Source: Naegleria gruberi
Lineage: Eukaryota
Strand: one strand, 5' to 3'
DNA: 64,000 bases
Assembly: GCA_000004985.1 (NCBI GenBank)
Contig: GG738894.1
Shown: piece by piece, positions 1,747 to 53,313 of the stretch
Layout of the letters: each line of letters begins with the position of its first letter
Position numbering within the stretch: position 1 is the first letter of the stretch
Made by a program: the position numbers and the translations under genes
Notes under the pieces: generated by a model
Told to the model about the DNA's origin: nothing
Databases searched by the model: none
What the model saw: only the letters and a program-made list of their open reading frames with translations

Positions 1747-2730
1747 ATGGCAAGAAAGCAAAACAAGAAGAAGCACAACTCTTCTTTCATAGATAAGGGT
1801 TGTAACAACCCAATAAATCCACCCCAGGAATTTAACATCTATTCAATTTGTCCAGAATACATGGAAAAACTAAATCAAAGAATTTGCAATAATCTTCTCG
1901 ATAAGTTTTTGGTAGAGTTTGAACAGGAGAGCCTTAAAGATAGTAAGGAAGAAAAATTCAGAAAGTGGAACGAGATGATTGCAAAGTTGAACAAGGTTGT
2001 TGTTCCTAAGAAAACGAAACTATCGAAAAAGAAAACAAGAGTTTCAGTTCTTCCGACTGTTGATTCGCCTTTGAAAACAACACTTATGGAAATAAGGAAA
2101 GAGTGGATTCAAAAACTGCGAATCAAAGAAAGTAAAAAGAAAGAAACCACAAGAACATCAGGAAGAGTTATTATTCTCCTTGATAGAAGCATTTCTGATC
2201 AAAGAATTACGAAAATCTATTCCGATATCTCCAGAGAGATTGTTGCCAATAATAATTACAAGTACTTTCTGCTTAATGTGTTAGAACACGGCTACCGTGG
2301 CTACCACGATTGGTCAAAGGTTCCAAGAGAATATTTAGCTGATGAATACTTTATTAGAAAGTTAATTTCATTTGGCTCAAGCTTCTATGACATTTTACAA
2401 TACATTTCATATTCAATTTGGAATAATCAAAGACTTATCATTTCATTCTTAAAGAAAACAAGGGGAGATTGCTTTAGTAGTTTTCCAAATGATATGAAAA
2501 ACCACCAAACATTTGCAGAGGTTGCTGTTAACATGGATCCAAAAAATATGAGATATACTAACCTTAATTCAAAACCAGTTTTTGTCAGGATGATGGCTAA
2601 GGAAAATGTGAAATGCTTGCCTTACATTGATCATCAATTGTTATTTGATCAGAAGTTTATGGTTTCTCTCATGTTAGAATTGAATATTAAGAATACGGAT
2701 TTATTTGGAAAGAAATATCGTTACAATTAA
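1747..2730 (+). CDS. hypothetical Lys-rich protein with C-terminal DUF4116-like repeats
   Basis: 327-aa ORF with ATG. The C-terminal third has motifs like 'FAEVAVNMDPKNMRY…KPVFVRMMAKEN', resembling the A(V/I)xxNGxALxYAS…LKNDxEIV repeats seen in other genes of this window. Confidence 0.45.
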   Translation: MARKQNKKKHNSSFIDKGCNNPINPPQEFNIYSICPEYMEKLNQRICNNLLDKFLVEFEQESLKDSKEEKFRKWNEMIAKLNKVVVPKKTKLSKKKTRVSVLPTVDSPLKTTLMEIRKEWIQKLRIKESKKKETTRTSGRVIILLDRSISDQRITKIYSDISREIVANNNYKYFLLNVLEHGYRGYHDWSKVPREYLADEYFIRKLISFGSSFYDILQYISYSIWNNQRLIISFLKKTRGDCFSSFPNDMKNHQTFAEVAVNMDPKNMRYTNLNSKPVFVRMMAKENVKCLPYIDHQLLFDQKFMVSLMLELNIKNTDLFGKKYRYN

Positions 2731-2754
2731 AGAGTGTAATGAATTTATAAACTT

Positions 2755-4326
2755 CTACTGTTTAACTCTTTTAGAAATATCAGTTTCTTCAGTCGATTCT
2801 CTCTTTCTCTTCTCAGTTTCTTCACTATTGTAGTTTCTCACAATGTTTTCAATCACATTGTATGCTTCTAATATTTTCTTATTTTCAAAGCCCTGCTTAT
2901 CGAATATGTAATCAAATCTATGGGCTAATGATCTTGGCTCAAAGAATCCTCTCTCAGCCAGTTTACCAATGAGGGATGGATGGTTATTGAGAAGAAAATT
3001 GAAAAATTCTGTAAAATCCTTCTTGAAATTCTTCTCATAAACATCCACAAAGAATAATTCAATATTAGCACATGCTCTTTCTTCATCTTCTACCCTGACT
3101 CGGAGAGTATCTATAATAAGATCACTAATTAGTCTGGAATAGGAATAGGTAACGTGTGTCATTGTACTGCTTGTAAATTTAGGTAATTTGTAGAAATAAT
3201 GCTTTTCCAAGAGATTCCATAATTGAGTATTTGAGTAGTGATTAACAATTGCTATGCAGAAAAATGAATACACTCTGTAAGATACATCAAAGAGATGACC
3301 TCCATTCTCAAGAATCATTTCAACATTTTCAATCAAATCATCCTCATCCTTTGAAAATGCTCTTTGCAGTAAAGTATCAACAAGAGTATTAGAGAGGATT
3401 CCATACATTTTCAAAGAATTATCAATGAGTGTTCTTGTGGGTACACTCTCATCATAATAAGACGGAGTACTAAGTGGTACTAGAGTTACATGTTTTGGAA
3501 TTTCGATTCCATACTGCAGAGGCCCAAAGTGAGAAAGACCTTTTGTGTAATTTAATCCCATCTTTTCCATTAAAACCAAATCTTGTTCAGTCAACTTATC
3601 CTCATTCTTATATTCGCCAAAACGAACCAAATCATGAAATACTAATTTGATAGATTTTGATTTTGCTCTTCCACAAAACATTCCTTCAATATCAGATAAT
3701 GTCATTCTACAGGATTGAAATAAAACACTCCTCAAATTGGTGCATTTAGAAAAATTCAAAGATTTAGCTTCGAATGAACATCCAACAAATGAAATATGTT
3801 CCACAGTCTCAAAAACAGTACAATCACTCATCCTAAATGTTATTCTATCGTTTGTGTTTTCTCTAATCGTCCTCTTATCATACATTAAATTATCCAGTAA
3901 ATCCTTTGTAATATGCAAATCAGAAAAGTGAATTCTTTTTGCATTTACAAATACAGTACTCAATAAATTTCTAAATTGTTTTAAAATTAAACTTTTTGAT
4001 GCCTTGTCACGAGAGGGAATTTCCTTCTCATCAGATAAAGCTGTTAGTTTAATTCTGGTTGGGAAGGAATTAGAGGTTATAGCAGACGAATCAAGTGCAA
4101 AGGCCGAAAGTGCAGAGAGTCTATTTTTTCCAGCAGTTTCTATTCGAAACTTTAACCATCTGGTCATCCGAAACTCATCATAAATTGCCAAGTGTTGTAA
4201 TGCTCCTTGATAAAAGTATGAATTGACCATTTGCATCCGAATACATTGTTCTACATTCAAATAGGAACAAATTTCTTGTACAACATTTGCTGTTATAGTA
4301 TCATGTGAAAACAAGAGAGATTGCAA
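2755..4326 (-). CDS. hypothetical F-box-like / Cys-containing LRR-like protein (start uncertain)
   Basis: 523-aa ORF. N-terminal 'TANVVQEICSYLNVEQCIRMQMVNSYF' is an F-box-like hydrophobic pattern. Middle has LRR-like 'CTNLRSVLFQSCRMT'. The ORF-track first codon at 4326 is TTG, so the true Met may be internal (MQMV…) or in an upstream exon (candidate MPKSKVVHLDG + GTAGGT donor about 4380-4412). Confidence 0.45.
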   Translation of the reverse strand: MQSLLFSHDTITANVVQEICSYLNVEQCIRMQMVNSYFYQGALQHLAIYDEFRMTRWLKFRIETAGKNRLSALSAFALDSSAITSNSFPTRIKLTALSDEKEIPSRDKASKSLILKQFRNLLSTVFVNAKRIHFSDLHITKDLLDNLMYDKRTIRENTNDRITFRMSDCTVFETVEHISFVGCSFEAKSLNFSKCTNLRSVLFQSCRMTLSDIEGMFCGRAKSKSIKLVFHDLVRFGEYKNEDKLTEQDLVLMEKMGLNYTKGLSHFGPLQYGIEIPKHVTLVPLSTPSYYDESVPTRTLIDNSLKMYGILSNTLVDTLLQRAFSKDEDDLIENVEMILENGGHLFDVSYRVYSFFCIAIVNHYSNTQLWNLLEKHYFYKLPKFTSSTMTHVTYSYSRLISDLIIDTLRVRVEDEERACANIELFFVDVYEKNFKKDFTEFFNFLLNNHPSLIGKLAERGFFEPRSLAHRFDYIFDKQGFENKKILEAYNVIENIVRNYNSEETEKRKRESTEETDISKRVKQ

Positions 4327-4436: not shown

Positions 4437-6704
4437 TTACAATATGAGATAGTTCATTGAATTGGTCATCCAATCAATACAATAAAAATCAGAAATTACA
4501 AATATTTGATTGATAATTTCCAATCTGTTGGTGCATTTCATTAAATTGGAAGGAGGTTGCAAGTAAAGAAGGTCAACCAGGTCATTGAGATCTGATTCAT
4601 TGAGGGTAATGTCATTGTTAAGGATTATTTTGGAGGATAATCTCTCATTGAATTGTCCACTGATGAGTTTGGAGAAGAATTGGGAAGTGATTATGCAAAT
4701 TTCAGAGTCAATGGAGAGTTTCAAGTTTCGGTTCGTTTCTAATGTCAGAGTTAAATCACCCTTTCGTTTTCCACTTTTAATTTCCTCTCTCAAATAGGAA
4801 AAATAGTCCAATAAATCTTGCAATGGAAACTTAAAGTCAACTAAGGAAGCATGTTGAGAATCATTAGTTGAGTTTCTGACTTCTTCACAAATTGGCCTCA
4901 ATCTCGGAATGGATTCGCATAACATCAATTCCTCCTCAACATTATCCTTATTCGAAATTAGTGATTTTCTAATCCTATTAATGAGATAGGGATGAAGAGT
5001 TTGTTCTAATTTTTTGAATTGTAAAGTTGCCCTGAAAAGTTCAATCAAATCCAATAATTCAGCATTCAATTCTTTTCCTACGAGCCAATCTTTCAATAAT
5101 TCAACACAATTAACACTTGTTTCCATCTCAATTCCATTCTTTAATTGATCTTCCTTCATTAGTTCACTTTCGTCCAATCTTTTCATCAAAATTAAAGGTA
5201 TCAAGGATACGAATCCTTCTCTCGACTTTACAGGAATCTTTTTCATTGGTAAATTCGAATCTAGAAACCTTTCCATACCACCAATCAACTCTTGTTCACC
5301 ACAAATCTGTAAATCCAACTCAACCAAGGTGTCCAGATGAGGTTTCTCAACGCATGGATTATATCCACCAATTGAATAGCATTTCTTTTCAGAAAATATC
5401 AGAAACGAATCATAGTACATGTTCAATAAATTTGAATTGCTAATCTTGTACCATTGATTGGTGTGAATGTCAATAATCATCACTTCATTAATGTAATGTC
5501 TTCTGTCGTAGTGATCATTAATTAAACCATTCGAAACTATTAAATATCGATCCATGAATAAATTACCTCCCTTATTGTAAGATTTGATAAATTGTCGATT
5601 ATCATCATAAGAAATGAATCCTGATTTAACTAAATTTGGAGCACTAAATGCAGACCATTCCTTTTTTTGGAAGGAATAAATGTGGAGGGAGTTGGTGAGA
5701 GGACCGAAAGGTTTCTCTCTAGTCTTACCTGCATAGATTATCAATTCATCCTTTGATTCACAATACACAGAGGTGTGATAGGCAAGTTTAGTAAATTGTG
5801 GAGCAGTGGACGAAACTCTTTCGTTTGATGTAGACGAAAGAAGAGAAGAAGCAGAAGAGAAGAGCACACTTGGTACTTGAAGCATGGGATTCGCTGGTTT
5901 GATATTCATATCTTCTGATAGAAATTTCCATGTTTGACTGTCAAGATTAATCTCAATAATCTCATTCGAATATTGATCAGTGTTATATTCGTAACCTGCA
6001 ATAATGTACAGACAATCCTTTCGAATAAAACTTGAATGACCCTCTCTTCTTGGAAGTCTTTCCCTCGAATAGATATTTTTCTTTGAGATTCGAACAGGGT
6101 TTAGAATCGTCCATTCTTCAGTCTTTACGTCAAATTCGTATAGATTATTTGAGGAAATAACCGAACTTGTTCTTCCACCGAATACGTAAATCTTGTTTCG
6201 TTTAGGACAAGCACTCACCGAGTGATAGAAACAAGGATTCAGATAAATTCTACTATTAGTTGGAAGTTGATTCGTCTGATTGTTGGTAGACGAAAGTAAA
6301 GAAGGACCAACAAGTTGATTCTCAAATTCTCTACACTCTATGAATGATGGAAGTACTTTCCACTTTTTACTTTCTATATTATACTCCAAGAAACTATTCG
6401 AATTCAATTCTTTCCTCGTACTCCCGCCAAAAACATATATCTTTGAGTTTAGAATAACTGCCTTGTGTAGATGAATCCCAAATGGAAGGGAAGAAGGTAA
6501 ATCATTGGCGAGATTAGGATTATTTGTTGATTTTCTAATGGAAACTCGAGCCAAATCTTGTTTTTCCTCATAATTCGAATGTGGTTGAAAGAGAATTAAA
6601 TCAGCACCACTACTTGATGAAGAATCTTTTTGTAATTCTAACCAGTTTCCAACAGGCTTTGAGTTTCTTCCAAGTTTCGACTCTACACTTTGCAATACTC
6701 CCAT
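4437..6704 (-). CDS. Kelch-repeat protein with C-terminal BTB/POZ domain
   Basis: 755-aa ORF. Kelch blade signatures (KIYVFGGS, NKIYVFGGR, LYIIAGYE, CYSIGGYN). C-terminal approx. 150 aa have a BTB-like pattern (DLTLTLETNRNLKLSIDSEICIITSQFFSKLISGQFNE…LNESDLNDLVDLLY). Confidence 0.6.
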   Translation of the reverse strand: MGVLQSVESKLGRNSKPVGNWLELQKDSSSSSGADLILFQPHSNYEEKQDLARVSIRKSTNNPNLANDLPSSLPFGIHLHKAVILNSKIYVFGGSTRKELNSNSFLEYNIESKKWKVLPSFIECREFENQLVGPSLLSSTNNQTNQLPTNSRIYLNPCFYHSVSACPKRNKIYVFGGRTSSVISSNNLYEFDVKTEEWTILNPVRISKKNIYSRERLPRREGHSSFIRKDCLYIIAGYEYNTDQYSNEIIEINLDSQTWKFLSEDMNIKPANPMLQVPSVLFSSASSLLSSTSNERVSSTAPQFTKLAYHTSVYCESKDELIIYAGKTREKPFGPLTNSLHIYSFQKKEWSAFSAPNLVKSGFISYDDNRQFIKSYNKGGNLFMDRYLIVSNGLINDHYDRRHYINEVMIIDIHTNQWYKISNSNLLNMYYDSFLIFSEKKCYSIGGYNPCVEKPHLDTLVELDLQICGEQELIGGMERFLDSNLPMKKIPVKSREGFVSLIPLILMKRLDESELMKEDQLKNGIEMETSVNCVELLKDWLVGKELNAELLDLIELFRATLQFKKLEQTLHPYLINRIRKSLISNKDNVEEELMLCESIPRLRPICEEVRNSTNDSQHASLVDFKFPLQDLLDYFSYLREEIKSGKRKGDLTLTLETNRNLKLSIDSEICIITSQFFSKLISGQFNERLSSKIILNNDITLNESDLNDLVDLLYLQPPSNLMKCTNRLEIINQIFVISDFYCIDWMTNSMNYLIL

Positions 6705-9043: not shown

Positions 9044-9499
9044 ATTTTCTTTTTTTCTTCCAATAACAAGATTTACTCTGTTGCTCTCCGAACTGTAATG
9101 ATGAAGATATTATATCAGATTGAATGATAATCTCGCTGGACTAGTACGATAATTATAGACGAGAGCAAACAAAGGGATACTTACTCCTCTCTTTAATATA
9201 ATCTTGTTATTTATTGTTGGTTGTTCTTCACTTTAAATAACATAAAGTCTTCAGGGTTGGTATCAGTCAACATTTAACAACATCAAAACCAATAAATGAT
9301 GAAGATTATTACTTCTGTCAATTACCGATTAATGATGAAGAAGTGGTAAAACCCCCATGATGAGTATTCCGTGTTTTAATTGTTTAATGTAAATTACATG
9401 TTGGTGATGCTGTTGACTGGAGAGGTGTGAATTAGCCAAACATTTTATTTTTTTTAAATTTTAAAATCATTATTCTTATTTGTAACGACTTGTTTAATA

Positions 9500-10708
9500 T
9501 TATTGTAAATGGCATGACTTTTTTTGTTTTTTCTTAAAAGCAGGATCATTCCACATATTGATACCTCTGACCATCACTTGGTGAAGGTCAGCCATTCCAC
9601 TATTGTTAATAGCACCTACTTCAACATAGGTGAAACATCCCATTCTTCTGGCCAGCAGTATTCCTTGCTCAGTACTTGATGGTTTTCTATGTCTCTTAAC
9701 CAGTAGCTCCCTTCTCTTGATTGGATCATCCCTTAAATCAGTTTTGGTACAAATCAGAATAATTAGACTATTTGGATGGAGGCGATTGATTTCAACAATC
9801 CATTTCGAATAAACGTTACGAAGGGAGGTCTCTAATGAACAGCTAAAGCAAATACAGAACATGTCAGTCCCAGGGTAAATATATCTGCGCAATCTTCAAT
9901 GTTTTGTTATAATAATTTAAAATCAATTGACTATTTGATAATTACCTATCGAATTCTGTAAATCATTCAATGAAGAGAATATTCTTAATTGACTTACCAT
10001 AATGTCCTTCAGAATCATGTAATTCCAAATGACAAACTCTTTCATCGACCAAACAATTCTTTGAGTAATTGTCAGATGAAGTTGTTGGTAAATGTTCATA
10101 TTGTGGAAACGAATCTGTACTAAACGTGTACAATAAACTGGTCTTACCAACAGTGTCATCTCCTTAATTCCCAATAATTTAATGAAAATAATTGAAAATA
10201 TTTCACACATACCCACTAGAACTATTTTGTAATGACTTGAAGTTACATTACTATTCAATTTGTAGTTTAGTATATCTTCCTTAGGTACATAAATATCATT
10301 CCACGCATAATAACCTTCAATTTCTCTCGTCAGCTCTTGCTGTTCTCTTTCTGCATTAATCATCCACTCTCCAACTAATTCAATCAAATGTTGCTTGTAA
10401 TTTTCAGTATATTCCACATGTTTAGTATAAAGTTCAGATTGTAAAATCACAACATCATATGTTCCTGTTGTCTTATTCCATCGGTTGGTCTTACTGGCCT
10501 CCGAAAACCAATGAATCCTCTCCATGTAATAATCTTTCCAATATTGATCTTCTGTTGTCAGTTGACATATTCTCAATTGTTTAGAAGCTAATTGTAATTT
10601 ACACAAATCTGTAATTTGCAGGAAGGAAAGAACCAATCGGAAAATGTCATCATTCAGCACAGAATTATTAATGTTGAATTCCGACTGTTTCTGTTTTTTA
10701 TGTATCAT
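9500..10708 (-). CDS. F-box-like N-terminal domain fused to a Rho-family small GTPase with polybasic-CAAX tail; exons about 10213..10708, 9999..10162, 9500..~9888
   Basis: ATG at 10708 (MIHKKQKQ…). F-box-like segment DIFRLVLSFLQITDLCKLQLASKQL. Exon 1 ends …HYKIVLVG at GTG G|GTATGT. A 50-nt intron (10163..10212) ends …ATTAAG. Exon 2 gives GDDTVGKTSLLYTFSTDSFPQYEHLPTTSSDNYSKNCLVDERVCHLELHDSEGHYG (P-loop GxxxxGKT, switch regions) and ends at G|GTAAGT (9998). Exon 3 gives LRRYIYPGTDMFCICFS…LICTKTDLRDD… (Rho 'LVGTKxDLRDD' box), ending KKKQKKSCHLQ* (CAAX). Confidence 0.55.
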
Positions 10709-11027
10709 ACTTTTAATCAAAAAAAACACGTGAAATTTGTTCTGTTGATTGTGATGATATTTTTTTGAGAATATTGTAAAGGTGTTTGTAGTTGTTCTTA
10801 GTTCATCATATTAGCACAAGTTAACCACTACTGGGTAGGGAAGGAAACTTAGTTTTGATTTTTGTAAACAGTTGGCAACTGGCCTATATTCATTGAGTTT
10901 GTTTTGATGGATAAATTTTGTTATGAGAGTGATGAATTAATCTTTAATTTTAAAATTCGAAAAGTGGAATTCTTCATATTATTTAGAACTGTGAACTTGG
11001 TGTGAACCACCTGCTTTAAAAAGAAGA

Positions 11028-11711
11028 ATGCAAACTTCATCTCTTACAACAACATATCAAAAAGAATACCTCCACAACAACAAGATGCAACAACAACCAA
11101 AAGTCAACATTATCGAGCAAGGAAACATTTGGACCATTGAAAATCTTTACTCACCAGAAGAATGTCAACAACTCATCAAGATTTGTGAATCGAATGGATT
11201 TGTGGAAGCTCCATTCAATGCCAATATGGCCAAAGATACAAGAAATAACGATAGAGTGATTCTTGATTTACCACAACATGCTCAATTGTTTTGGGAAAGA
11301 GTTTCACCTTATTTACCTCAACATGCTTCTCAATTGGGAAATCAAGTATTGGAAAGTAATGCAAAATCTGGATTTCAATTGTTAAATCCAGGATTTTCGA
11401 ATAGATTGAGATTCTACAGATATAAGAAGGGTCAATATTTTGCTCCCCACACAGATGGTTGTTATTTTGATAATAGAGATAAATATGTGGACCAGTCATT
11501 CTTGACAATCTTGCTCTATTTGAATGATGTCAATAATGCTGGAGGAGAAACTAATTTTATTCAAAATGGAATCAAACATAGTGTTCAACCAAAGAGTGGA
11601 TCTGTGTTGATATTTGTGCATTGGAATTGTCACGAAGGTGCTGAGGTGACATCTTCTAATGCTTTGAAGTATGTTATGAGAACAGATGCAGTTTTTAGAA
11701 GAATTAAATAA
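11028..11711 (+). CDS. 2OG-Fe(II) oxygenase, prolyl 4-hydroxylase-like
   Basis: 227-aa ORF with ATG. HxD…H iron-binding pattern (FAPHTDGCYFDN … VHWNCHEG) and the P4H-like 'RFYRYKKGQYFAPHTD' core. A basic R/K follows (RTDAVFRRIK). Confidence 0.6.
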   Translation: MQTSSLTTTYQKEYLHNNKMQQQPKVNIIEQGNIWTIENLYSPEECQQLIKICESNGFVEAPFNANMAKDTRNNDRVILDLPQHAQLFWERVSPYLPQHASQLGNQVLESNAKSGFQLLNPGFSNRLRFYRYKKGQYFAPHTDGCYFDNRDKYVDQSFLTILLYLNDVNNAGGETNFIQNGIKHSVQPKSGSVLIFVHWNCHEGAEVTSSNALKYVMRTDAVFRRIK

Positions 11712-11771: not shown

Positions 11772-11842
11772 TGCATTAGCCGGGAGTCGAACCCGGGTCA
11801 CCAGCTTGGAAGGCTGGTATGATACCGTTACACTACTAATGC
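11772..11842 (-). tRNA. tRNA-Gly(UCC)
   Basis: The reverse complement GCATTAGTAGTGTAACGGTATCATACCAGCCTTCCAAGCTGGTGACCCGGGTTCGACTCCCGGCTAATGCA folds as a cloverleaf. It has a 7-bp acceptor stem (GCATTAG/CTAATGC), anticodon stem CCAGC/GCTGG with loop CUUCCAA (U33, anticodon UCC, A37), and T-arm CCGGG-TTCGACT-CCCGG. It is nearly identical in its 3' half to vertebrate tRNA-Gly-TCC. Confidence 0.8.
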
Positions 11843-11930: not shown

Positions 11931-12011
11931 CGCAGACTGCAGGATTCGAACCTACGAAGGTTTCCCCAACAGATTTCAAGTCTGTCGCCTTAACCACTCG
12001 GCCAAGTCTGC
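11931..12011 (-). tRNA. tRNA-Ser(UGA), type II with long variable arm
   Basis: The reverse complement GCAGACTTGGCCGAGTGGTTAAGGCGACAGACTTGAAATCTGTTGGGGAAACCTTCGTAGGTTCGAATCCTGCAGTCTGCG has a 7-bp acceptor stem (GCAGACT/AGTCTGC), anticodon stem ACAGA/TCTGT with loop CUUGAAA (anticodon UGA), a 13-nt variable arm, and T-loop TTCGAAT. The GGCCGAGTGGTTAAGGC D-arm is typical of Ser tRNAs. Confidence 0.8.
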
Positions 12012-12080: not shown

Positions 12081-13754
12081 TTATTGATTGGATTCCTTGT
12101 AGGATTGAGCTACTAACTTCATTAGTTCTTTTCGATCGAGATGTGGATTCTTATCTTTTAGTTTCTTGTAATTTTCCTTCATAAATAAATTATACTTGGT
12201 TGGTTGCTTGGTTTTTCCAATTGGTTCCAATATTCCAGTGCAAACTCCACACCTTTGTTTTGTGGTATCAACAGATTTGGAATGTCTCTTTACAATTGAT
12301 CCACAATCCGTGCATTGCCACTGATATTTATATTCAATATCGTATGAGTGGCAAGTCGTGATTGGAATGTCAGGATAGTATTTCTGAATAATTCCACCAT
12401 ATAAATAAAATGTTTTACCATGGCCTGTAATGCCGTCGAACATAAATGAAGCAGCATGACACATTTCGTGAGCTAGTGTATGAACAAGTCTCTCTTCACA
12501 ATCACAAACCTTTGTGGACATTTCAATGGCACATACCTTGATTTGTGATTTAGTGATTGTAAAGAGTTTACACAACCCAGCAGTTTTCCTCAAATGTTGA
12601 TTCCATAATAAATATGCTTTCCCTTTCAGATCTTTAGCCTTACCCTTTGTAACTTTCATAGCTGGAAGTTTGTTTTGGAAGCATACCTTGTTGAATTCGT
12701 CATAATATTTCTGTAATAAATCATCTCTGACCTTTTTGAATTTTTTGGCATCCATCTTTTCAAAAGTTAATGTCTTTGAATTTTTGGAACTTTTTGCTGG
12801 CTTTTTGTTAGTTAATATGGATTTTTCATGGAAATCATCATCATCGTCATCAATTTCAATAACATTGGTATCAATCTTGTTTTTTGGGTTGGATTTTGTT
12901 TTCGTTTTGGATTTCTTAATTTGTGGACTTTCTGCTTCCATTTCGTCATAGTCCTCATCATCGTCATCATCCTCTCCACTACTTTCAGCATATTCCTCAT
13001 CACTCTCCTCGTCAAAGTTGAAATCCTCTTCATCAGATGATATTGCTTCCTCCTCCTCCTCCTCAGAAGAATCACTCAGCTCAAAAGCATTCTTTTTCTT
13101 TTCCTCCTCCTCAAATTCCTCAATAATATCCTGCCCCACAATATCAGATTCTTTCACCCAAGTATTTTCACTACTTGGATATCCCTCCCATTTCACATAG
13201 TATTCAACAAGCTTATTTTTCACTCGTTTTTTAATGATCCTTTCAATGGAATAAACATCATCTTTCTCCTTATCCTTCTCAAAATCATATTCTTCCTCAG
13301 AATCTGAATGATCCTCAATCACTCGCTTTCCAAATGATTTTCTCGATTTTCTTCTCACTGGCGAAGTGTTTGCCATCTCTTCATCACTTTCATCATCATC
13401 ATCGGAAATAGCAATCACAACTCTTTCATTAAATTCATTTCCAGATTTTCCGTGATGGTGATGATCAGCAGCTTCTTGAGTGGCTAATAGTGGTGGTAAT
13501 GTTGCTTGCTCCTCCTGGAAATGTACAGTACTTCTTCTTGGTAATTCCTGCTCTTCTTCCTTCTTTAATAGTGCAATTGGTTGCTCAGGAAGAGTGTTAT
13601 CACTTTCGGAAAGGAGACCTTTTGGAAGAATCGTCTCTGGATTCGAAAAGAAATCATGCCAAGTAATTGAACGCCATCCAAATTCGTTACACATGTTCAA
13701 GTATCGATTACGAGTTACTTCATATGAAAATTCTTGTTCTTGATAAATATTCAT
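12081..13754 (-). CDS. GCNA/SPRTN-like SprT zinc metalloprotease with acidic disordered region, chromodomain, Zn-finger and HMG-like C-terminal tail
   Basis: 557-aa ORF with ATG. Chromodomain-like VYSIERIIKKRVKNKLVEYYVKWEGYPSSENTWVKESDI. Very acidic D/E/S-rich stretches. SprT core 'HTLAHEMCHAASFMFDGITGHGKTF' (HExxH…GHG, as in SPRTN HEMIH…GHGPEF). Cys-rich 'CTDCGS…CGVC' region. C-terminal basic helix-like 'TKYNLFMKENYKKLKDKNP'. The domain order matches the GCNA (acidic repeat/SprT) family. Confidence 0.65.
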   Translation of the reverse strand: MNIYQEQEFSYEVTRNRYLNMCNEFGWRSITWHDFFSNPETILPKGLLSESDNTLPEQPIALLKKEEEQELPRRSTVHFQEEQATLPPLLATQEAADHHHHGKSGNEFNERVVIAISDDDDESDEEMANTSPVRRKSRKSFGKRVIEDHSDSEEEYDFEKDKEKDDVYSIERIIKKRVKNKLVEYYVKWEGYPSSENTWVKESDIVGQDIIEEFEEEEKKKNAFELSDSSEEEEEEAISSDEEDFNFDEESDEEYAESSGEDDDDDEDYDEMEAESPQIKKSKTKTKSNPKNKIDTNVIEIDDDDDDFHEKSILTNKKPAKSSKNSKTLTFEKMDAKKFKKVRDDLLQKYYDEFNKVCFQNKLPAMKVTKGKAKDLKGKAYLLWNQHLRKTAGLCKLFTITKSQIKVCAIEMSTKVCDCEERLVHTLAHEMCHAASFMFDGITGHGKTFYLYGGIIQKYYPDIPITTCHSYDIEYKYQWQCTDCGSIVKRHSKSVDTTKQRCGVCTGILEPIGKTKQPTKYNLFMKENYKKLKDKNPHLDRKELMKLVAQSYKESNQ

Positions 13755-15293: not shown

Positions 15294-16936
15294 TTATTCC
15301 ACATGGCTGAACTTGGCAGGGCATTGACCATTCCAAACAAAGACTGGTTGATCAACACTGGTTGGTCCATTGATAATGTGAACAGTGTTAATGTCGAGAA
15401 TTGAAGAAACCTTAGTATCATAACCTCCACTGCAGCTTCTTGTAGCATCAGTAGCAGTTGGAGACAAATCATTTCTGCTCGAAATGGAATAGCCAGGTTG
15501 ACCAAGAGAAAGTGGATCATACTTCCAATTGTTATATCTAAGAAGATTCTTAATAGTATCAATTGAGTTGACCTTATTTTGATCTCTTCTAAAAATGTTA
15601 GCTCTAACACATGTTTCATAGGACAACATGTCTGAGGCATTTGGTCTCTTTAAGATTTCAGGATATCCAGAAATTGTGAAAACTTCCTTATAGAATGGAA
15701 CATTGTAACTAGGCCAGTATCCATAGCTGAGAATTTGAGTTTGATCAGCACCAATAACCTTTCCTGGAATTTGCTCAACAACCCAAAACAAGTCATTGGC
15801 AAGTGGTTGGCCAGGAACGAACTTTTTAGTATCCAAAACCATGAATTGATTATTGTAAGTACCAGAGTTATATTCAGAAAAGATTTTACTCCATGAAGGA
15901 GCATCATCAGCAAGTCTGTTGGCTAAAATAACTCTTTGCCAACACAACAATGATTCTGGTTTGAGTAAATCATATAAGGAAGTGTTGAAAATATTGTTGG
16001 AAGTCTCAATAACAACTAATCCATTTTGAGTAATGTAAAAATCATCATTTGAAGCAAGTGTAGCTGGGTAACCAGAGAATGTGACCTTTGGTGAAGCAAC
16101 CAATTTGTTATTGAAATTGAAAGTGTAAGTCTTATAGATACGACTGAAATTTTCAATGATATAATGATAATGGTTAGAAAACAAACTTACGTCATAGCTG
16201 CAAACACGAACCACGAATTATGTCCAAAGTAGATATTACTGAAATCTGGTGCGACCTTGAAGATGGCAGAGCAGTGACCATTGTCTCTGGCGAATTGTAA
16301 AATTTGAGCTGAGGTCATCTTGTTAAAATTTGGTCTGAAATCCTTCTTAACATTGACAATATCAAACAAGTCACCAGAAGCACTCATTACTTGCAATTCA
16401 GCATAACTAATTTTTTCTGAACTATTTGTAGTGGCATAATTGTAACCATCAAGCAAACCCTCCATTTGCAAATAAACAGTTCTGACCTGTTGCCAGAACG
16501 GATCGTTGGCATACTTGGCAGATGAATCTCTAACCCAAGCACGTTGAGACTCCAAGAAATCTCTCACATATTGTGGCATCTTCTTATCAGGATTCTCAGC
16601 CCACACATACGTATTCAAATTAACAAAGTGATTGTAAATTCTCTTCCTTGTCAAGACTCCTTCCAAATAACCGGCAGCATAACTTTGCAATTCATCCTTT
16701 ATCAATCCATTGGTTTCAATAGAGAGAACATCCCATCCTTTTGCCTCATAACTATCATCATAATGTGCTGCAGCAATACCCGATCGCAGATTATAAACTC
16801 CATTCCTAACTATGTAATTCCCATTTTCATAGTAAAAGGTGGCATCGAGAGCCAAAACCTTGTTGGAGGCTTCATTTAAAACACCACAAACAATCAAGAG
16901 TCCGAGGATAAGTAAAAGAAGTGGTGATTTGTTCAT
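15294..16936 (-). CDS. phospholipase B-like (PLBD/LAMA family) Ntn-hydrolase; exons 16191..16936 and 15294..16143; C-terminus lost in N gap
   Basis: ATG at 16936 (MNKSPLLLLILGLLIVCGV signal peptide). Family-typical 'DNGHCSAIFK' (Cys nucleophile context) and 'YFGHNSWF'. ORF ends …AAMT at ATG AC|GTAAGT (16190). The 47-nt intron ends …AATTTCAG (16144). Exon 2 continues in frame (TRIYKTYTFNFNNKL…) for about 290 aa to the gap. Confidence 0.65.
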
Positions 16937-17089
16937 TTTTTTTTTATCAAGACTATTAATGTGAACCTTACGGAGATGTAAGCTATAGAATGGAATTTTC
17001 ATGTTTTAAATATAATAGATTTTTAACAAATATTTACATTATATTTAGCACAAATAATTAAATTTTCAATACTACCAAACAAATAAAAA

Positions 17090-20943: not shown

Positions 20944-22098
20944 TTATATACTTGATATGTCAGGGAATTTCTCACGTATTTCCAACATGAATTTGTTATC
21001 CCTTCTTAGCTTTTCTCCAATAAATGTATCAAGGTTTACATGGTGATTGTGTGAAGGATCTTTGTATGATAATCCTATTCCCAACATTACAATTTCCTTA
21101 TCATTTTTGTACATGTTTGGAAGGCTGTATACAACTCCATTCTTTAAGCATCGAATGACCAGATCTCTATCTTCCAATAAATTATGTGGTAAATAATTCA
21201 GAATATTATTATTGATATCGAGAGAAAGATATTGTTCTGTGATTTCTCTTGTTTTAAACATATTGTTCATAAAGCAATAAGATATTCCATTTCTTTGAAA
21301 TACTGCCTTGGCAATATCCGTATCTGTAATCAAATGATCTGGGATGAAGCTAAAGATGTCATATGATACATAGTTTGTCTTTTGAATCAATAAGAGGAGA
21401 AATTCTTTGGTTAGAATTGATTTGTGTACGCAACCTAAATCTGAACATCTTTTGCCTATACAAATTTGAACTATCTCTGTGTCCATTCTAAAATTATTGG
21501 GAAATATAAAAAGTGGAGCATTATTGTGTACCAATTTCAGAACATTTTCTCTCTTTTCTCTAATTGGTTCTGGAAACTCACGATAGGAGAATATATTTGC
21601 CTTCACAGATTCCAGGAAGAAGTTTTCATCGTTTTGCAATCTATCACTAATTAGCTCAACATTCTTGGGGTTCTTTTTGATAGCTGCCATAGCAATTTCC
21701 TTGTCATCCAAAAACTGTTGAGGTATTTCTCTAGCAATAAATCTCAAAGAAAATGATTGAGTCATGACCATTAGCTTGACAATTTCTCTGTCATTATAAA
21801 ATTGTTTCGGTACTGAAATATCATACTTGCAACAAAGTGTCCTCAACACAAATGCTCTATCCTGTTGAAACTCCTCAGGTAAATGAGAATAGAGTGGATA
21901 TGATTTCAGAGCAGCAAGACAAATATTCCTATTCCTCTTCAACACTTCATTGCAATGAAAGTAAAACAGACCATATTGGGAAACTAATTTCAAAGCAACT
22001 CGATAACAATCTCTCAATTGTTGAGGAATTTGATTAAAAACTTTTACAGTCCTAATTAAATGTGCAATCTTTCCAATCACGTATTCATTTCCTACCAA
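20944..22098 (-). CDS. DUF4116-type repeat protein (N-terminus uncertain)
   Basis: 384-aa ORF. Repeated 'xxDREIVxxAVxxNxxALxYxSxxLKND' units (e.g. FYNDREIVKLMVMTQSFSLRFIAREI, LDDKEIAMAAIKKNPKNVELISDRLQNDENFFLESVKAN). ORF-track start is TTG. The frame stays open about 150 nt further upstream without an in-frame ATG (a nearby ATG is in +1). Confidence 0.5.
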   Translation of the reverse strand: MVGNEYVIGKIAHLIRTVKVFNQIPQQLRDCYRVALKLVSQYGLFYFHCNEVLKRNRNICLAALKSYPLYSHLPEEFQQDRAFVLRTLCCKYDISVPKQFYNDREIVKLMVMTQSFSLRFIAREIPQQFLDDKEIAMAAIKKNPKNVELISDRLQNDENFFLESVKANIFSYREFPEPIREKRENVLKLVHNNAPLFIFPNNFRMDTEIVQICIGKRCSDLGCVHKSILTKEFLLLLIQKTNYVSYDIFSFIPDHLITDTDIAKAVFQRNGISYCFMNNMFKTREITEQYLSLDINNNILNYLPHNLLEDRDLVIRCLKNGVVYSLPNMYKNDKEIVMLGIGLSYKDPSHNHHVNLDTFIGEKLRRDNKFMLEIREKFPDISSI

Positions 22099-23890: not shown

Positions 23891-25483
23891 TCACTCAAAC
23901 ACATTAGAAGGGTTAGTTTTCAACTCGTGCCAAAGCTTGTACTCGTCAGTGTAAATGAATCTGGAGAACGAATCAACTAGGTTCGTATATAAATCTCTCT
24001 TAATTTCATGTAATAAATGCTTGCTGGTATCAAGATTAATGGTACCACTCTTTCTTTCAGTATCTACCAATTTCTTTGTTTTTCCTCTAATGTTAATTTC
24101 TTCTGAGCAACCATCATCAAGGAATTTATCATAGACCATGTTAATCACCTTGCTTCTTCTTTTTCCTGACATGTCAATAAAATTCTTTTCCATATCCAAA
24201 AGCTCTTGCCAACAATTCAAATTCTCGACTGAAAACTCTGCAACACAAAAGTCTTTGAATAATTGAAATCCCATAGCATCTCGTAAAAGTAGCTCCAACT
24301 CGTTTGTCATTATTGAAGGAGCAGAGGCTGAACGTTCCAAATTCTTTCTATCAGATGGTGTTTTACCATGATCTGAAGAGGGAATTTCCACATGACTATG
24401 AGATTGAGTCTTAATGACTGTTCTAGTCTTTGAAAATGATTTGTTGAGAATGTTGGCAATCTTTTTCTTTTCATCCAATTCAGCAGCAATAGTTGTATCA
24501 GTATCTGTATCAGCTCCTGCTCTTGTTGCTGAAGATGAAGAGTCTGAAGTTGCTGCACTCGTAATTGAATGAACTCTAGGTCTGTGTTGTGGAAGTTGTG
24601 TTGATGATGAAGGAGAAAGATCCACAATTGGTGTATTCACATTTTGCATTGAAATAAACTCCTCACTATCGGTAACTCTTCTTCCAAATTCCTCTTCCCC
24701 TTTCATTTCTGCCTCATCGATAGTATTTCTTCTGTGAAGCATAAAGAAGGCCTTGAGCACATTCTTCTTCTTTAAGAGAGAAAGCTTGGGCGTTGAAAGT
24801 GATCGTCTGTAGCCTGAATTTTCTTGTAACCTAGCAATTTGTTGTTGAGTGGAAGGAGGAAGGGATTGTCTGGACTTGAGATTGGATGATTCGTTAGTAG
24901 TTGAGATTGTGGTAGTATTATTTATAGTGGTGGTATGAATGGTAGTGTTGTTGTTGGTAGTGGAGGCTCTAGATTGTGTTGGGTTTGAAATTTGCATGAC
25001 TGTGTTAATGTTGGTTGGAATATCTGAAATATGAATACTAGTACTGAGCGCAGTCCTAGAGTTTCTAACACTCGTCGTTGTGCTGGTCAGTGAGGTCATG
25101 TCACTATCAACATGGTGCAATGGAAAAACGTTGAAAGATGTATTCATGGATGAGGAGAGGAGTACGGGAGAAGATGGTGTTTGTTGTTGATTGTTATTTG
25201 AACAATGTGATGAAGAGGCAGCTCCAATTCCAACAAGAGCATGCGATGCAGCAAACACTACATCACTTGGAGGTTGTTGCTCTTGATTATTAGGTGTAGA
25301 GATGGCATTATTCGAAACTTGATGATGAACATTAAAACTGGATACAGTGGTCAGAGGTGATTGATTTCTCGTTGTTGCTGTTATTGTTGGTATTGATGAT
25401 GAATTCTTAGAGGAGGATGAAATGTGCCTCTCACTCCTCCTAAATGAGAAGCGTTGTTTAGAATGAGAATTTGTATTGCCCAT
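23891..25483 (-). CDS. RGS-domain protein with N-myristoylation motif and long S/T/N-rich low-complexity N-terminal region
   Basis: 530-aa ORF with ATG. MGNTNSH (G2, S6). C-terminal RGS signature 'FQLFKDFCVAEFSVENLNCWQELLDMEK…YDKFL'. Confidence 0.65.
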   Translation of the reverse strand: MGNTNSHSKQRFSFRRSERHISSSSKNSSSIPTITATTRNQSPLTTVSSFNVHHQVSNNAISTPNNQEQQPPSDVVFAASHALVGIGAASSSHCSNNNQQQTPSSPVLLSSSMNTSFNVFPLHHVDSDMTSLTSTTTSVRNSRTALSTSIHISDIPTNINTVMQISNPTQSRASTTNNNTTIHTTTINNTTTISTTNESSNLKSRQSLPPSTQQQIARLQENSGYRRSLSTPKLSLLKKKNVLKAFFMLHRRNTIDEAEMKGEEEFGRRVTDSEEFISMQNVNTPIVDLSPSSSTQLPQHRPRVHSITSAATSDSSSSATRAGADTDTDTTIAAELDEKKKIANILNKSFSKTRTVIKTQSHSHVEIPSSDHGKTPSDRKNLERSASAPSIMTNELELLLRDAMGFQLFKDFCVAEFSVENLNCWQELLDMEKNFIDMSGKRRSKVINMVYDKFLDDGCSEEINIRGKTKKLVDTERKSGTINLDTSKHLLHEIKRDLYTNLVDSFSRFIYTDEYKLWHELKTNPSNVFE

Positions 25484-26260: not shown

Positions 26261-29200
26261 TCAAAAACTTGGAAATTCTCTTTCCTTTGAAAGAGGAAAA
26301 CAATAAGACAAGTCCAGAAAATAATTATTCAATGGACACTCTAATAAAATAGTTTTTGAGACTTTTTCATTTCGAGATTGCTTGATACGGATAGTAAATC
26401 TTGGGCTTACAATATGTGGCATTTTCTCTTCTTGATTATTGAATAATTTGAAGCAATTCAAATTGAAAAGGCAACATGTATACACAAATGGACTTCTAAT
26501 GAGTGACTTAAATCTTTCTTCAAGATTAAACTCATTGTCGTCCTCTTCTATGTATTGATTGTAGGTATGGAAGAGCCAGTATGCTGCCTTGTGGTTGAGC
26601 TTATCCAAACTGTCTCCATCATGTTTGATAAAGACTTTCTCCCAGTTTATCTTATCTTCTTCAAGGCAATCTTTAATGCTTTCGAATAATTTCTGTTTGT
26701 GTGCTGAGAATTTATCAGAAAGGACAATCTCATCATTTTTTCTGGTTGACCAATAGAGTCTCCATTGTGAATACGCTTCCTTAAATTCATCTTTCCATCT
26801 TTGCCACTCTGAGGAGTATATTTCAGATGGGTTTTCAAAAACAGTGTCAAGTTGCTTTGTATCTGAAAAAACCATCCTATTGAATATATTTCTAATTAGG
26901 TCAAACATTCTTGCTTCGAATGTATCAAGTTCTATATGAGATTGGTCAGTAATCTTCAATTTGCAAAGTTCCATCCACTTTGGAGAATCCTTTTTTGGAA
27001 TTTCATACAACTGTTTAGCATTAAAAGCTGATCCCTTAATAGTATCAATGCTGTCGTGATACATTTTGGACAATTTAAGTTTGATATCTATTCCAACCTT
27101 GGAAGAATCTTCTCTCCAACACATTGTTTTAAGATAAACTTCTGAAATTTTTGATGATTGTTCCATCATTTCCAATACAGTTTTTCTTACATCTTCCATG
27201 CTTAGTGAATTTTTAACAGTTTTGGTCACCTTATTGGTGGCAGCTCCATCGTTATAATTCAATTTTGGTTTGAGATTTTGATCAAATAACTTGACAATTT
27301 CTGGATCGAAAATAATCTCATACAAGTCGCCATCCAAATCACCTCCTGCCATGTAGCATAATGGTTCTGGGACTTTCTTATAATTTGGATTGTGTCCAAA
27401 GACAATGACATCTCTTCTTGATTGGAGGAATTCTGTTGGGGGATGCTTGACCAACTTTAAGCATTGGATATCACCTTCATAGGCAAGAGGATTTCTATAG
27501 ACAAGAACCTTGTCAATTTTAGCATAATCTAAACTTCGAATCAACTTGGAGCATGGGATGTGAACTTCATCATGTTTCAAAGTCGAACTTTCATCATAAA
27601 CACCCATACCACTTAAAAACCCAGGATGTTTACATTTCATACTGAGCTTGTCACTAACCATGGATTCAAACTTGCTTTCAATATTGTCTTTTACAACGGA
27701 GGAAATAAAATAATTATCCAATGAATGTTCAGCCATTATTAAATCTCTAGCAATAGATTCTTGCGAAGTTTCTCCTGATTGAGAGAGGAGCACGTTGCAT
27801 AAATATTCTGGATTATCCTTATTCTCAACAATTTCCATTAATTGAGTTTCGTAAAAATTTTTGAACAATTTTTCCATTTCTTCTTCATTCGTAGTCATTT
27901 GCAGTAAGCAAGACATGATATTTCTATTAATATTGCCACCATGAACACGAGCAACATTCAATATATCAATCTTATTGTAAATTGAATAATTTCCTTCAAA
28001 TTTCACCATTGAATTTCTCAAAATGACTTTGGTATTGGATGGCAATTTGTGCTTTTTAAGTAATTCTGCCCACATTGATTTGTTAACCTTTTGAATGACT
28101 CCTTTGGCTCCCAAAATTCTTACCTGCATGGCACTGATGTTCTTGAAATTCTTTTCGAATAGTCTACCTTGTTTCGTATCTGATTCAAATAACTTGTCCA
28201 TAAAGAAATATGGAACAGAGTAGGTATTTTCCAGGACTTGTTCGAAGAAATCTTCAACAGCCATACCAGCACCATCAGTCACTGCAATATCATCTGAAAT
28301 AATTTGGATATCATCTTGTTTCCATTCCACAATACTTGGAGTACTAGTTCCCATACTCAATCCAACTCTACTAGCAACCTTTCTAGGTCCATGCTCCTCA
28401 GCTTTTTCAAAGGTACCCAACATTTGCTTCAATATTTCCAAATTCAACAATGTTGAGTTGTAAAAGATACAGGAATCACCTTTCAAACCAGAATTTGAAG
28501 TACCTAACAAACAATACTTATGACCTTCATGAACAATACCATAGGAGAGACAATATTCCTTCTTGCATTCTGAGAGTGCTTTCAGATCCTCTTTGGATGT
28601 AAAATCAAATTTTACAACCATTAAACATTTTCCCAAATTCAAACTCATTAAAATTCTTGCTAATCTTGAGAATGAATTCAAGATTGAGTAACGATTGGTT
28701 CCATCACCAATAATCGCATACTTTCCATTGTTTCCCTCCATTTTCTTCCATCTGTTTTTCACATGACAAACTAGTGGATAGAATTCACCAAAGAATTGTT
28801 CGTATCCACCAGCAACATTTGAATTGAAAAGTGATTGAAAAAGAGTTTGATTAGCTTGTGATTCAAACAGTTCCAATTCTCTGGCAAAGTATCTGTATCT
28901 CTTCATCAAGTATTCCAATGGATTCTTTGCTAAATCCATGGTGCTATCACACATATAGGAAATCTTTGCACTCAACTCTGAATATTGAACATTATCTATC
29001 TTGACAACAATCTTCCAAACATTCTTTCCAAAACCAAGAACATTCCAATCTTCCCAGCCGGTGATTGTTTGCAAATCTTCATCTCTCATTGGCAATACAA
29101 TAATCAATTTACCATTAACCNNNNNNNNNNNNNNNNNNNNNNNNNNNNNNNNNNNNNNNNNNNNNNNNNNGTTGATTGCATTAACCAATGTCTTTTGATC

Positions 29201-29374
29201 TCTCATTCCTCTCTCATGGACCAATAAAACTTGTTGAACAGTTGATGAATCACAGTTTTCCAATTTCAAATAAGTACGAATCTTTCGGAACAGAATATCC
29301 TTGATCTTCTCTGTAGCTCCAATCTTGATAGATGGAGGACCAGAAATTGTTGTGGATGGGGAAGTGTCCATCAT
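26261..29374 (-). CDS. eukaryotic RNA-dependent RNA polymerase (RDR family), interrupted by a 50-N gap at 29121..29170
   Basis: ATGATG at 29374 (MMDTSPSTT…). Catalytic 'CYMAGGDLDGDLYEIIFDPEIV' (DxDGD signature of cellular RdRPs) in a protein of over 1000 aa. The ORF-track N-terminal 60 aa (alt start) are probably 5' UTR. The 3' end may include an unspliced intron (GTAAGC at about 26418). Confidence 0.7.
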   Translation of the reverse strand: MMDTSPSTTISGPPSIKIGATEKIKDILFRKIRTYLKLENCDSSTVQQVLLVHERGMRDQKTLVNAINXXXXXXXXXXXXXXXXXVNGKLIIVLPMRDEDLQTITGWEDWNVLGFGKNVWKIVVKIDNVQYSELSAKISYMCDSTMDLAKNPLEYLMKRYRYFARELELFESQANQTLFQSLFNSNVAGGYEQFFGEFYPLVCHVKNRWKKMEGNNGKYAIIGDGTNRYSILNSFSRLARILMSLNLGKCLMVVKFDFTSKEDLKALSECKKEYCLSYGIVHEGHKYCLLGTSNSGLKGDSCIFYNSTLLNLEILKQMLGTFEKAEEHGPRKVASRVGLSMGTSTPSIVEWKQDDIQIISDDIAVTDGAGMAVEDFFEQVLENTYSVPYFFMDKLFESDTKQGRLFEKNFKNISAMQVRILGAKGVIQKVNKSMWAELLKKHKLPSNTKVILRNSMVKFEGNYSIYNKIDILNVARVHGGNINRNIMSCLLQMTTNEEEMEKLFKNFYETQLMEIVENKDNPEYLCNVLLSQSGETSQESIARDLIMAEHSLDNYFISSVVKDNIESKFESMVSDKLSMKCKHPGFLSGMGVYDESSTLKHDEVHIPCSKLIRSLDYAKIDKVLVYRNPLAYEGDIQCLKLVKHPPTEFLQSRRDVIVFGHNPNYKKVPEPLCYMAGGDLDGDLYEIIFDPEIVKLFDQNLKPKLNYNDGAATNKVTKTVKNSLSMEDVRKTVLEMMEQSSKISEVYLKTMCWREDSSKVGIDIKLKLSKMYHDSIDTIKGSAFNAKQLYEIPKKDSPKWMELCKLKITDQSHIELDTFEARMFDLIRNIFNRMVFSDTKQLDTVFENPSEIYSSEWQRWKDEFKEAYSQWRLYWSTRKNDEIVLSDKFSAHKQKLFESIKDCLEEDKINWEKVFIKHDGDSLDKLNHKAAYWLFHTYNQYIEEDDNEFNLEERFKSLIRSPFVYTCCLFNLNCFKLFNNQEEKMPHIVSPRFTIRIKQSRNEKVSKTILLECPLNNYFLDLSYCFPLSKEREFPSF
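29121..29170. other. scaffold gap (50 N) inside the RdRP gene
   Basis: Run of N. Confidence 0.95.
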
Positions 29375-29955
29375 GGAAAGGGTGAGTGGGTGGTTATTGT
29401 TGATCATCACAAATATTATAATTTGTCTGGTTGAGTAGTTGTTGTTGATTTGTTTTTTTTGATTTTGAAAATTGTGTGATGTGGAGAATTCCCAATTAAA
29501 AACCCAAATTTTTGTTTTCCAGATCAAAAGAACGAGAATATTTGTTTCTCTCAACAAATCTCAAAAGAGGCAATGAGAACAAAACCATTTTACAGTACCA
29601 ATTACATTCAGTAGAATATTTGGATAATCACAATTGATCTCAACAAGGGATATTCATCTAATAATCGGTAGTGTTAGCCCAATTTGTTCCCCATTGATTG
29701 GCGAGTGTTTTCTTCTCCACATACTTTTTATCATCAATTGATTAACCCCCTCTTTGTATTGTTCCTCCTCTTCGGAAGAATGATATCAACATGTATTACT
29801 CTAGAGAATCATATTAAGTGTTATTGTGATTTCTTAAGGGATTTTTTTTTCTTCTAAACAACATACCTCATCCTTTTGGATGAAGAATATGAGTAGGCTT
29901 TTGTCTATTAGGTGACAATTATCAACGGTGTTTTATAGTTCCATATCCAAACACC

Positions 29956-52428: not shown

Positions 52429-53313
52429 ATGCTATCACAACAAACTAAACACTTTGCTAAGAGATCCTCTAGTGCCATCTTAGCCTATCAACAATTACTC
52501 AACAATTCCTTTAAACTTTCCCATACAGCTCAAACAGTTTCCAATAAATGGGATCATCAACCTTCGGATAAACCAATGTTTACAAAGGACATGGTTCTAG
52601 ATCATTACAAGGCACACATTCCTCTTGCCCAAACTAAATTCCGTGGCTATGGAACAGATGGAATCCACACAAATGTTGAAGAATTAGAAAAATTCGAAGT
52701 CAAACGATCATACAAACCAGTTGACTTGACTGATAAGACAGCTCTTGCAATTATGAAGTTTTTGAGAGTTTTCGTCCATGGATTCTTTGGAAATCGTTAC
52801 ATTCACCATGCAGTTGTCTTGGAAACAGTCGCAGCAGTTCCTGGTATCGTTGCAGGTGGCTGGAGACATTTCAGTTCATTGAGATTGATGAGAAGAGATC
52901 ATGGACATATTGGAGAATTAATGGAAGAAGCTGAGAATGAAAGAATGCACTTGTTAACATGGATGGAAATGACAAAACCAACCTTCCTGGAAAGATTACT
53001 GGTTGTGGGAGCTCAAGTTGCCTTTACTTCATTTTACACTGGTGCCTATTTTGTAAATCCAAGATTTTGTCATCGTTTGGTTGGATATTTGGAAGAGGAA
53101 GCAGTGGGTGCCTATACTGAATTTTTGAATGCTATTGATAATGGAGACATTCCAAATTGTAAAGCTCCAGAAATTGCATTGAAATATTGGAATTTGAAAC
53201 CAGATGCAACAATGAGAGATGTTGTATTGGTAATTAGAGGTGATGAATGTATGCACAGAGATTACAATCATGACATGTCTGATAAACATAGAGCAGGAGT
53301 TGAAGGTCAATAA
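52429..53313 (+). CDS. AOX: alternative oxidase (mitochondrial, di-iron)
   Basis: 294-aa ORF with ATG. Basic/hydroxylated presequence-like N-terminus. Di-iron ligand motifs 'LETVAAVPG', 'ENERMHLLT', 'YLEEEAVGAY', 'RGDECMHRDYNH'. Confidence 0.8.
   Translation: MLSQQTKHFAKRSSSAILAYQQLLNNSFKLSHTAQTVSNKWDHQPSDKPMFTKDMVLDHYKAHIPLAQTKFRGYGTDGIHTNVEELEKFEVKRSYKPVDLTDKTALAIMKFLRVFVHGFFGNRYIHHAVVLETVAAVPGIVAGGWRHFSSLRLMRRDHGHIGELMEEAENERMHLLTWMEMTKPTFLERLLVVGAQVAFTSFYTGAYFVNPRFCHRLVGYLEEEAVGAYTEFLNAIDNGDIPNCKAPEIALKYWNLKPDATMRDVVLVIRGDECMHRDYNHDMSDKHRAGVEGQ

Follow-up and report, generated by a model that had tools for sequence, protein, structure and literature searches.

The minus strand of a 64,000-nt stretch of Naegleria gruberi DNA (contig GG738894.1; the whole stretch is referred to below as the window) carries a gene in which an F-box-like region, a Rho-type GTPase and a polybasic-CAAX tail are fused. 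This fusion within one gene is real, and the gene is almost certainly the one coding for XP_002672981.1 (UniProt D2VSQ9), a member of a heterolobosean Rho/Rac expansion with an N-terminal F-box. The gene is already annotated and the F-box-Rho architecture has already been described in Naegleria. The single new detail is that XP_002672981.1, which has been listed as a plain Rac, also appears to possess the F-box of its family.

The exon structure of the gene is given in Table 1. The sequence-only reading of this DNA had described a continuous minus-strand gene with two introns, in which the strong G/GTAAGT donor at 9997 could not be joined in frame to the exon beginning with LRRYIYP, and it had therefore considered a GTCAAT donor 4 nt downstream, a non-canonical splice or a 1-nt assembly error. 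The single gene was retained, but it contains three introns and a micro-exon of 10 nt instead of two introns. All GT-AG models with one or two introns were enumerated in the region 9870-10060, and only four of them gave an intact open reading frame (ORF). As stated by the earlier reading, no single intron joins the donor at 9997 in frame to the LRRYIYP exon. The apparent anomaly disappears because the micro-exon, which restores the frame, lies between two consensus introns; neither a non-canonical splice nor a 1-nt assembly error is needed.

The splice models were scored against a hidden Markov model (HMM) of the family from which the query had been left out. The micro-exon model reached 344.3 bits and the GTCAAT-donor model, which is among the four models with an intact ORF and has a single second intron of 100 nt, reached 333.2 bits, i.e., 11 bits less. 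The Pfam Ras score increases by 8 bits, from 93.8 to 102.1 bits, when the micro-exon is included. The product of the micro-exon junction (GHYEFDRLRRYIYP) aligns without a gap to the Rho consensus, as does the longer stretch DSEGHYEFDRLRRYIYPGTD to DTAGQEDYDRLRPLSYPxTD, whereas the GTCAAT-donor model leaves a gap of two residues in switch II and ignores a perfect GTAAGT donor. An exact look-up showed that the 354-aa product of the micro-exon model is identical at every residue to XP_002672981.1 (EFC40237.1, UniProt D2VSQ9), named "rho GTPase", whereas the 352-aa product of the GTCAAT model has no exact match in the protein collection. All six splice sites conform to the consensus, and the introns, with 50, 42 and 52 nt, are similar in size to those of the closest paralog (42 and 51 nt), the two introns flanking the micro-exon included. 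Based on the HMM scores and the identity to the annotated protein, the GTCAAT donor and the 1-nt assembly error were rejected, and hardly any likelihood is left to them.

The F-box-like motif, the beta-1 strand and the first base of the P-loop glycine codon of the GTPase lie in one exon, which excludes two separate genes for the F-box ORF and the GTPase. From the ATG at 10708 this exon, whose frame contains DIFRLVLSFLQITDLCKLQLASKQL and whose N-terminal translation includes LNDDIFRLVLSFLQITDLCKLQLASKQLRICQL, stays open over 165 codons up to HYKIVLVG according to the ORF list and model building. An open frame of this length has a chance probability of ~3e-6, as estimated from the base composition (33% GC, ~0.074 stops per codon). 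In a homolog at positions 2252-3520 of another sequence (Logan SRR15442816), there are apparently several mini-exons around switch II, one of them a candidate 10-nt exon (AACGGTTAAG) flanked by consensus splice sites; a clean model could not be derived.

The N-terminal region comprises the F-box-like motif and a linker of ~100 residues. Its F-box core is the best-conserved part in an alignment of 31 divergent sequences, with the family consensus LNDDxxRxILSFLxIxDLxxLxLVSKxLRxCQLxxEDxxWKxxY. When searched against the PDB, the family profile retrieved FBXO3 (E = 3.5e-7), followed by FBXL5, FBXW7, FBXO4 and beta-TrCP, all aligned across their F-boxes. Pfam F-box models are matched by 22-24 of the 39 relatives described below, with a best E-value of 5e-22, and the paralog P0078 clears the gathering score of PF00646 (22.7 vs 20.5 bits). 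XP_002672981.1 on its own scores 16.3-17.5 bits with this model (cut-off 20.5; E = 0.004-0.009), and the Pfam F-box-like model gives E = 0.01-0.03, which is also below threshold. The N-terminal F-box-like segment proposed by the earlier reading thus holds for the family by profile and Pfam matches, but this protein alone stays under the PF00646 cut-off, and its F-box appears convincing only at the family level.

An AlphaFold2 model was obtained from a 24-sequence alignment, with a predicted local distance difference test score (pLDDT) of 87.4 and a predicted TM-score (pTM) of 0.82; the pLDDT of a single-sequence run was 33. The motif is modelled as three short helices (residues 20-27, 32-41, and 46-52; pLDDT ~94), as in the F-box fold of ~40-50 aa. 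The linker elements comprise a helix (54-71), a hairpin (strands 73-78 and 83-88) and two further helices (91-98 and 104-131) with pLDDT values of 83-95. Together with the G domain, the F-box helices, the long helix, the hairpin and the second long helix form a single compact fold.

The complete Rho-type GTPase core that had been recognized from the letters was confirmed. The protein contains the motifs GDDTVGKT (G1), the switch-I threonine (LPT), DSEG (G3), TKTD (G4), and EVGAI (G5), and it matches Pfam Ras with E-values from 1e-26 for the 352-aa model to 3e-29 for the 354-aa product (102.1 bits). In a Foldseek search against the PDB the best 50 matches were all RhoA, Rac or Cdc42, with a target TM-score of ~0.9 and 35-40% identity. 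The best sequence match of a word-indexed search was Rac-like (43% identity), and the AlphaFold2 model shows a Rho insert helix at residues 279-289, after TKTD. In the P-loop (GDDTVGKT) and in switch II (DSEGH), both catalytic residues, Gly12 and Gln61 in Ras/Rac numbering, are replaced (G12D and Q61H). Changes of the G12D and Q61H type abolish the intrinsic hydrolysis and the hydrolysis stimulated by GTPase-activating proteins (GAPs) in Ras and Rho. Due to these substitutions, the protein is probably hydrolysis-deficient and constitutively bound to GTP. It is an atypical Rho, as the substitutions touch its regulation and not its membership of the fold. Many family members have lost Gly12 or Gln61, and some keep both, as shown by a table of motifs.

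The prenylation box KKKQKKSCHLQ, also part of the earlier reading, is encoded as proposed and is followed by TAA. The protein terminates 15 aa past the G domain with this CAAX box, whose CxxQ ending is kept in 11 complete family members. A final glutamine in a CAAX box predicts farnesylation. A BTB domain was not found in XP_002672981.1 by Pfam with E-values up to 10.

An exhaustive HMMER search with the N-terminal region (aa 1-160) identified the 39 relatives, among which 23 contain a Ras-family domain and 10 contain Kelch repeats, besides those with F-box matches. Two layouts were found by domain mapping. The first one consists of F-box, linker, Rho and CxxQ tail and has a length of ~350 aa; the second one has Kelch repeats in front of the same elements and comprises ~630-730 aa. 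Those with a named source belong to N. gruberi, N. fowleri, N. lovaniensis and Willaertia magna, and paralogs carry the UniProt/NCBI names "F-box domain-containing protein" and "Rho family small GTPase". The closest paralog is the Kelch-F-box-Rho protein XP_002672610.1, which is collinear over aa 18-352 and across all splice junctions (39% identity, E = 1e-75). In a near-identical environmental copy of its gene, the first intron interrupts the same P-loop glycine codon in the same phase, and the second intron is located one codon upstream of intron 2 of the gene in the window. XP_002672610.1, XP_002678060.1 and A0A6A5CFS0 of N. fowleri share with XP_002672981.1 the order of F-box, ~100-aa linker with the NYK..LIE motif, Rho and CxxQ. 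Compared with XP_002672610.1, the protein described here lacks the N-terminal Kelch propeller, and its gene has an extra intron and the micro-exon in switch II. A second copy of the gene was not found in the window by tblastn with the protein, and no relative of exon 1 was present among the JGI metagenome contigs scanned.

The sequence-only reading did not recognize an F-box joined to a Rho domain as a described architecture. This did not hold, since related genomes contain the arrangement frequently and in annotated form, with a Ras domain in 23 of 39 relatives and named proteins in N. fowleri, N. lovaniensis and W. magna. Furthermore, Herman et al. (2021, BMC Biol; PMC8296547, Supplementary Material 4, Table S8) report that, among the novel GTPase architectures of Naegleria, fusions of an F-box to Rho, Rab, Ran and G-alpha GTPases occur most often, and they propose "GTPase-dependent ubiquitination" as the role of these proteins. 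In Table S8, at least 14 N. gruberi "Rac" entries carry an F-box flag, some of them together with Kelch or BTB. XP_002672981.1 is entered there once, as a plain "Rac" whose gene model is unmodified and which has no F-box flag, between two entries which are both F-box-flagged relatives. Unmodified models are given in this table by accession only. The flag is missing because the F-box of the protein scores under the Pfam threshold; compared with its Naegleria F-box-Rho relatives, the protein is sub-threshold and unflagged in Table S8, and it has both G12D and Q61H. A word-indexed homolog search started from the 352-aa model missed the identical annotated protein and returned six GTPase-only matches (three proteins in its profile version), as the 90%-identity cluster of XP_002672981.1 is represented by a 130-aa fragment. 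For this reason, the lack of a hit in such a search does not mean that a protein is unannotated.

Both the window and a second strain carry an intact copy of the gene. The second strain is represented by a metagenome contig (ENA ERZ929261, positions 1-1445), which was compared with positions 9256-10675 of the window and carries the same gene with 96.5% identity overall. The exons differ by seven substitutions (two synonymous; Y84F, A135V, R261H, and H352Y) and an in-frame insertion of 6 nt, and CYLQ takes the place of CHLQ in the CAAX box. All three introns (144 nt), the micro-exon and all splice sites are identical, while the 244-nt 3′ flank differs by ~18%.

Several known systems resemble the protein in part. 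RhoBTB proteins, which occur in metazoa, in Dictyostelium (RacA) and also in Naegleria, likewise fuse an atypical Rho to an adaptor of a cullin-RING ligase and couple a Rho switch to ubiquitination, and GTP hydrolysis is probably impaired in both. However, RhoBTB carries a C-terminal tandem BTB (Cul3), whereas XP_002672981.1 has an N-terminal F-box (Skp1-Cul1), i.e., the reversed order, and a CAAX tail. Membership in RhoBTB was rejected, as the proteins are analogous but no BTB domain was detected by Pfam. In FBXL2 and FBXL20, an F-box together with a C-terminal CaaX places a Skp1-Cul1-F-box (SCF) receptor on membranes, where leucine-rich repeats are responsible for recognition; these proteins are geranylgeranylated (CVIL). 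F-box and CaaX are shared with XP_002672981.1, in which a GTPase replaces the leucine-rich repeats and the final glutamine predicts farnesylation. Rnd1-3 and RhoH likewise have substitutions where Ras has G12 and Q61, and Rnd is farnesylated, but they have no F-box or other cullin-adaptor domain, unlike XP_002672981.1. The analogy to RhoBTB drawn by the earlier reading is a reasonable one, and the same link to ubiquitin ligases is made by Herman et al. (2021; PMC8296547).

Of the roles considered, the most likely one, though tentative, is that the farnesylated and hydrolysis-deficient Rho domain may recognize the substrates of an SCF ligase bound to the membrane. The tail would be farnesylated, and the farnesyl group and the lysines would hold the protein on the membrane. 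The GTPase would bind GTP, hydrolyse it poorly and stay "on", in this respect like Rnd, RhoH and RhoBTB. The F-box would dock onto Skp1-Cul1-Rbx1, so that the Rho domain could act as the substrate-recognition module and present effector-like partners for ubiquitination. Such a scheme would correspond to the "GTPase-dependent ubiquitination" put forward by Herman et al. (2021; PMC8296547).

Several observations weigh against this recognition role, and most of them favor an F-box-derived motif that does not bind Skp1. Together with the linker, this motif would serve intramolecular regulation or oligomerisation, and the protein would otherwise be an ordinary atypical Rho on the membrane that takes no part in a ubiquitin ligase. 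Besides the score under the Pfam threshold, Leu-Asn replaces Leu-Pro in XP_002672981.1 and in nearly all family members; the canonical Leu-Pro at the start of F-box helix 1 contacts Skp1. The compact single-body AlphaFold2 model, which was computed for the 352-aa version with two residues different in switch II, suggests that the N-terminal domain may pack onto the GTPase, as its pTM is high, and this packing would fit intramolecular regulation equally well. The F-box core is, however, better conserved than the rest of the N-terminal region, true F-box proteins in the PDB are still found with the family profile, several paralogs clear the Pfam thresholds, and the Kelch-F-box-Rho paralogs look like classical Kelch F-box receptors. 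A module without Skp1 binding is therefore considered rather unlikely, though it deserves to be taken seriously.

It is improbable that the F-box mainly serves self-destruction, with SCF-dependent auto-ubiquitination setting the level of a Rho that is not switched off by hydrolysis, and turnover replacing the control by GAPs. F-box proteins are commonly auto-ubiquitinated within SCF complexes and RhoBTB2 is itself a Cul3 substrate, and the G12D- and Q61H-type substitutions as well as the frequent loss of these residues in the family would agree with such a role. Some members keep Gly12 and Gln61, however, so the loss of hydrolysis is not universal, and this explanation has no direct support. 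That the locus would be a recent duplicate lacking function or expression, within a birth-and-death family, is more improbable by far. Its GTPase motifs are degenerate, no syntenic ortholog was found in N. lovaniensis or N. fowleri, and four of six differences between the strains change an amino acid, the other two being synonymous; these counts are too small for showing purifying selection. Birth-and-death evolution and pseudogenes among Naegleria GTPases are also noted by Herman et al. (2021; PMC8296547). Nevertheless, all four exons are open, the six consensus splice sites are identical in the second strain, and the only indel of this strain is in frame, while its 3′ flank has diverged.

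Table 1. Features of the F-box-Rho gene in the window (slashes mark splice junctions).
Feature	Position	Strand	Description
Whole gene	9500-10708	minus	four exons, three introns; product 354 aa
Exon 1	10213..10708	minus	start ATG 10706-10708; aa 1-165 and first base of Gly166; F-box, helical linker, GTPase beta-1 (HYKIVLV-G)
F-box-like motif	10526..10657	minus	aa 18-61, LNDDIFRLVLSFLQITDLCKLQLASKQLRICQLTTEDQYWKDYY; LN in place of the LP dipeptide
Linker domain	10238..10525	minus	aa 62-157; long helix, beta-hairpin, conserved NYK/NFK..LIE motif, second long helix (family alignment, AlphaFold2)
Intron 1	10163..10212	minus	50 nt, G/GTATGT...TTAAG/, phase 1, within the P-loop Gly codon
Exon 2	9998..10162	minus	P-loop DDTVGKT, switch I HLPTTSSDNYS, start of switch II LELHDSEGHY
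Intron 2	9956..9997	minus	42 nt, G/GTAAGT...TTTACAG/, phase 1; strong donor
Micro-exon 3	9946..9955	minus	10 nt, AATTCGATAG; supplies E-F-D-R of switch II
Intron 3	9894..9945	minus	52 nt, AG/GTAATT...TTGAAG/, phase 2
Exon 4	9500..9893	minus	LRRYIYPGTD, G4 TKTD, Rho insert (~9677-9733), G5 EVGAI, polybasic-CAAX tail; stop TAA 9500-9502
Polybasic stretch and CAAX box	9503..9535	minus	KKKQKKSCHLQ, aa 344-354, then TAA; Cys351 predicted prenylation site

The window is gene-dense and intron-poor. Divergently to the F-box-Rho gene, with ~320 nt between the start codons, a prolyl-4-hydroxylase (P4H)-like 2OG-Fe(II) oxygenase is encoded at 11028-11711 on the plus strand. Its product is 100% identical to a predicted protein of N. 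gruberi from the same contig as XP_002672981.1; it is annotated with 208 aa, and an upstream ATG permits 227 aa. A cytoplasmic P4H modifies Skp1 in other protists, which makes the adjacency to an F-box-Rho gene curious. This adjacency is not kept in N. lovaniensis and N. fowleri, where the P4H orthologs have a BTB_2 gene as their upstream neighbor. Synteny of the F-box-Rho gene is therefore not conserved, in agreement with a fast turnover of the family.

Just past the oxygenase gene, two tRNA genes are located on the minus strand, tRNA-Gly(TCC) at 11772-11842 and tRNA-Ser(TGA) at 11931-12011. They are followed by a minus-strand gene (12084-13754) for a protein of 557 aa with a chromodomain and an SprT-like metalloprotease with zinc ribbon, an unusual pairing for a protease of the Spartan/Wss1 type. 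A phospholipase B is distributed over two overlapping minus-strand ORFs (15297-16214 and 16190-17002, which match positions 1-192 and 188-473 of the profile), as might result from a frameshift or a short intron. Three minus-strand genes code for proteins with DUF4116 repeats (53342-55408, 47408-49276, and 20947-22098, with 12, 5, and 4 matched stretches, respectively). A 755-aa Kelch-repeat protein, of which ~490 C-terminal residues have no Pfam match, is encoded at 4440-6704 on the minus strand. A tblastn search showed no relationship between it and the F-box-Rho protein, although Kelch repeats occur in the closest paralogs of the latter. Further neighbors are an RNA-dependent RNA polymerase (26264-29557), an RGS-domain protein (23894-25483) and eIF2A (34166-36016), all on the minus strand, as well as an alternative oxidase on the plus strand (52429-53310).

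Beyond this single gene, a wider and somewhat more doubtful reading of the sequence data is that a GTP-locked, farnesyl-anchored Rho could act as an SCF(Cul1) substrate receptor, the Cul1 counterpart of RhoBTB-Cul3, and could form, together with the Rab, Ran and G-alpha fusions, a lineage-specific system that reuses GTPase effector interfaces for the choice of targets, an idea suggested by Herman et al. (2021). If the assembly with Skp1 and Cul1 is true, Naegleria would possess dozens of ubiquitin ligases in which GTPase switch domains choose the targets. This would be an unusual coupling of membrane signaling to protein degradation and, as the same family occurs in the pathogen N. fowleri, it would also have a bearing on the biology of that species.

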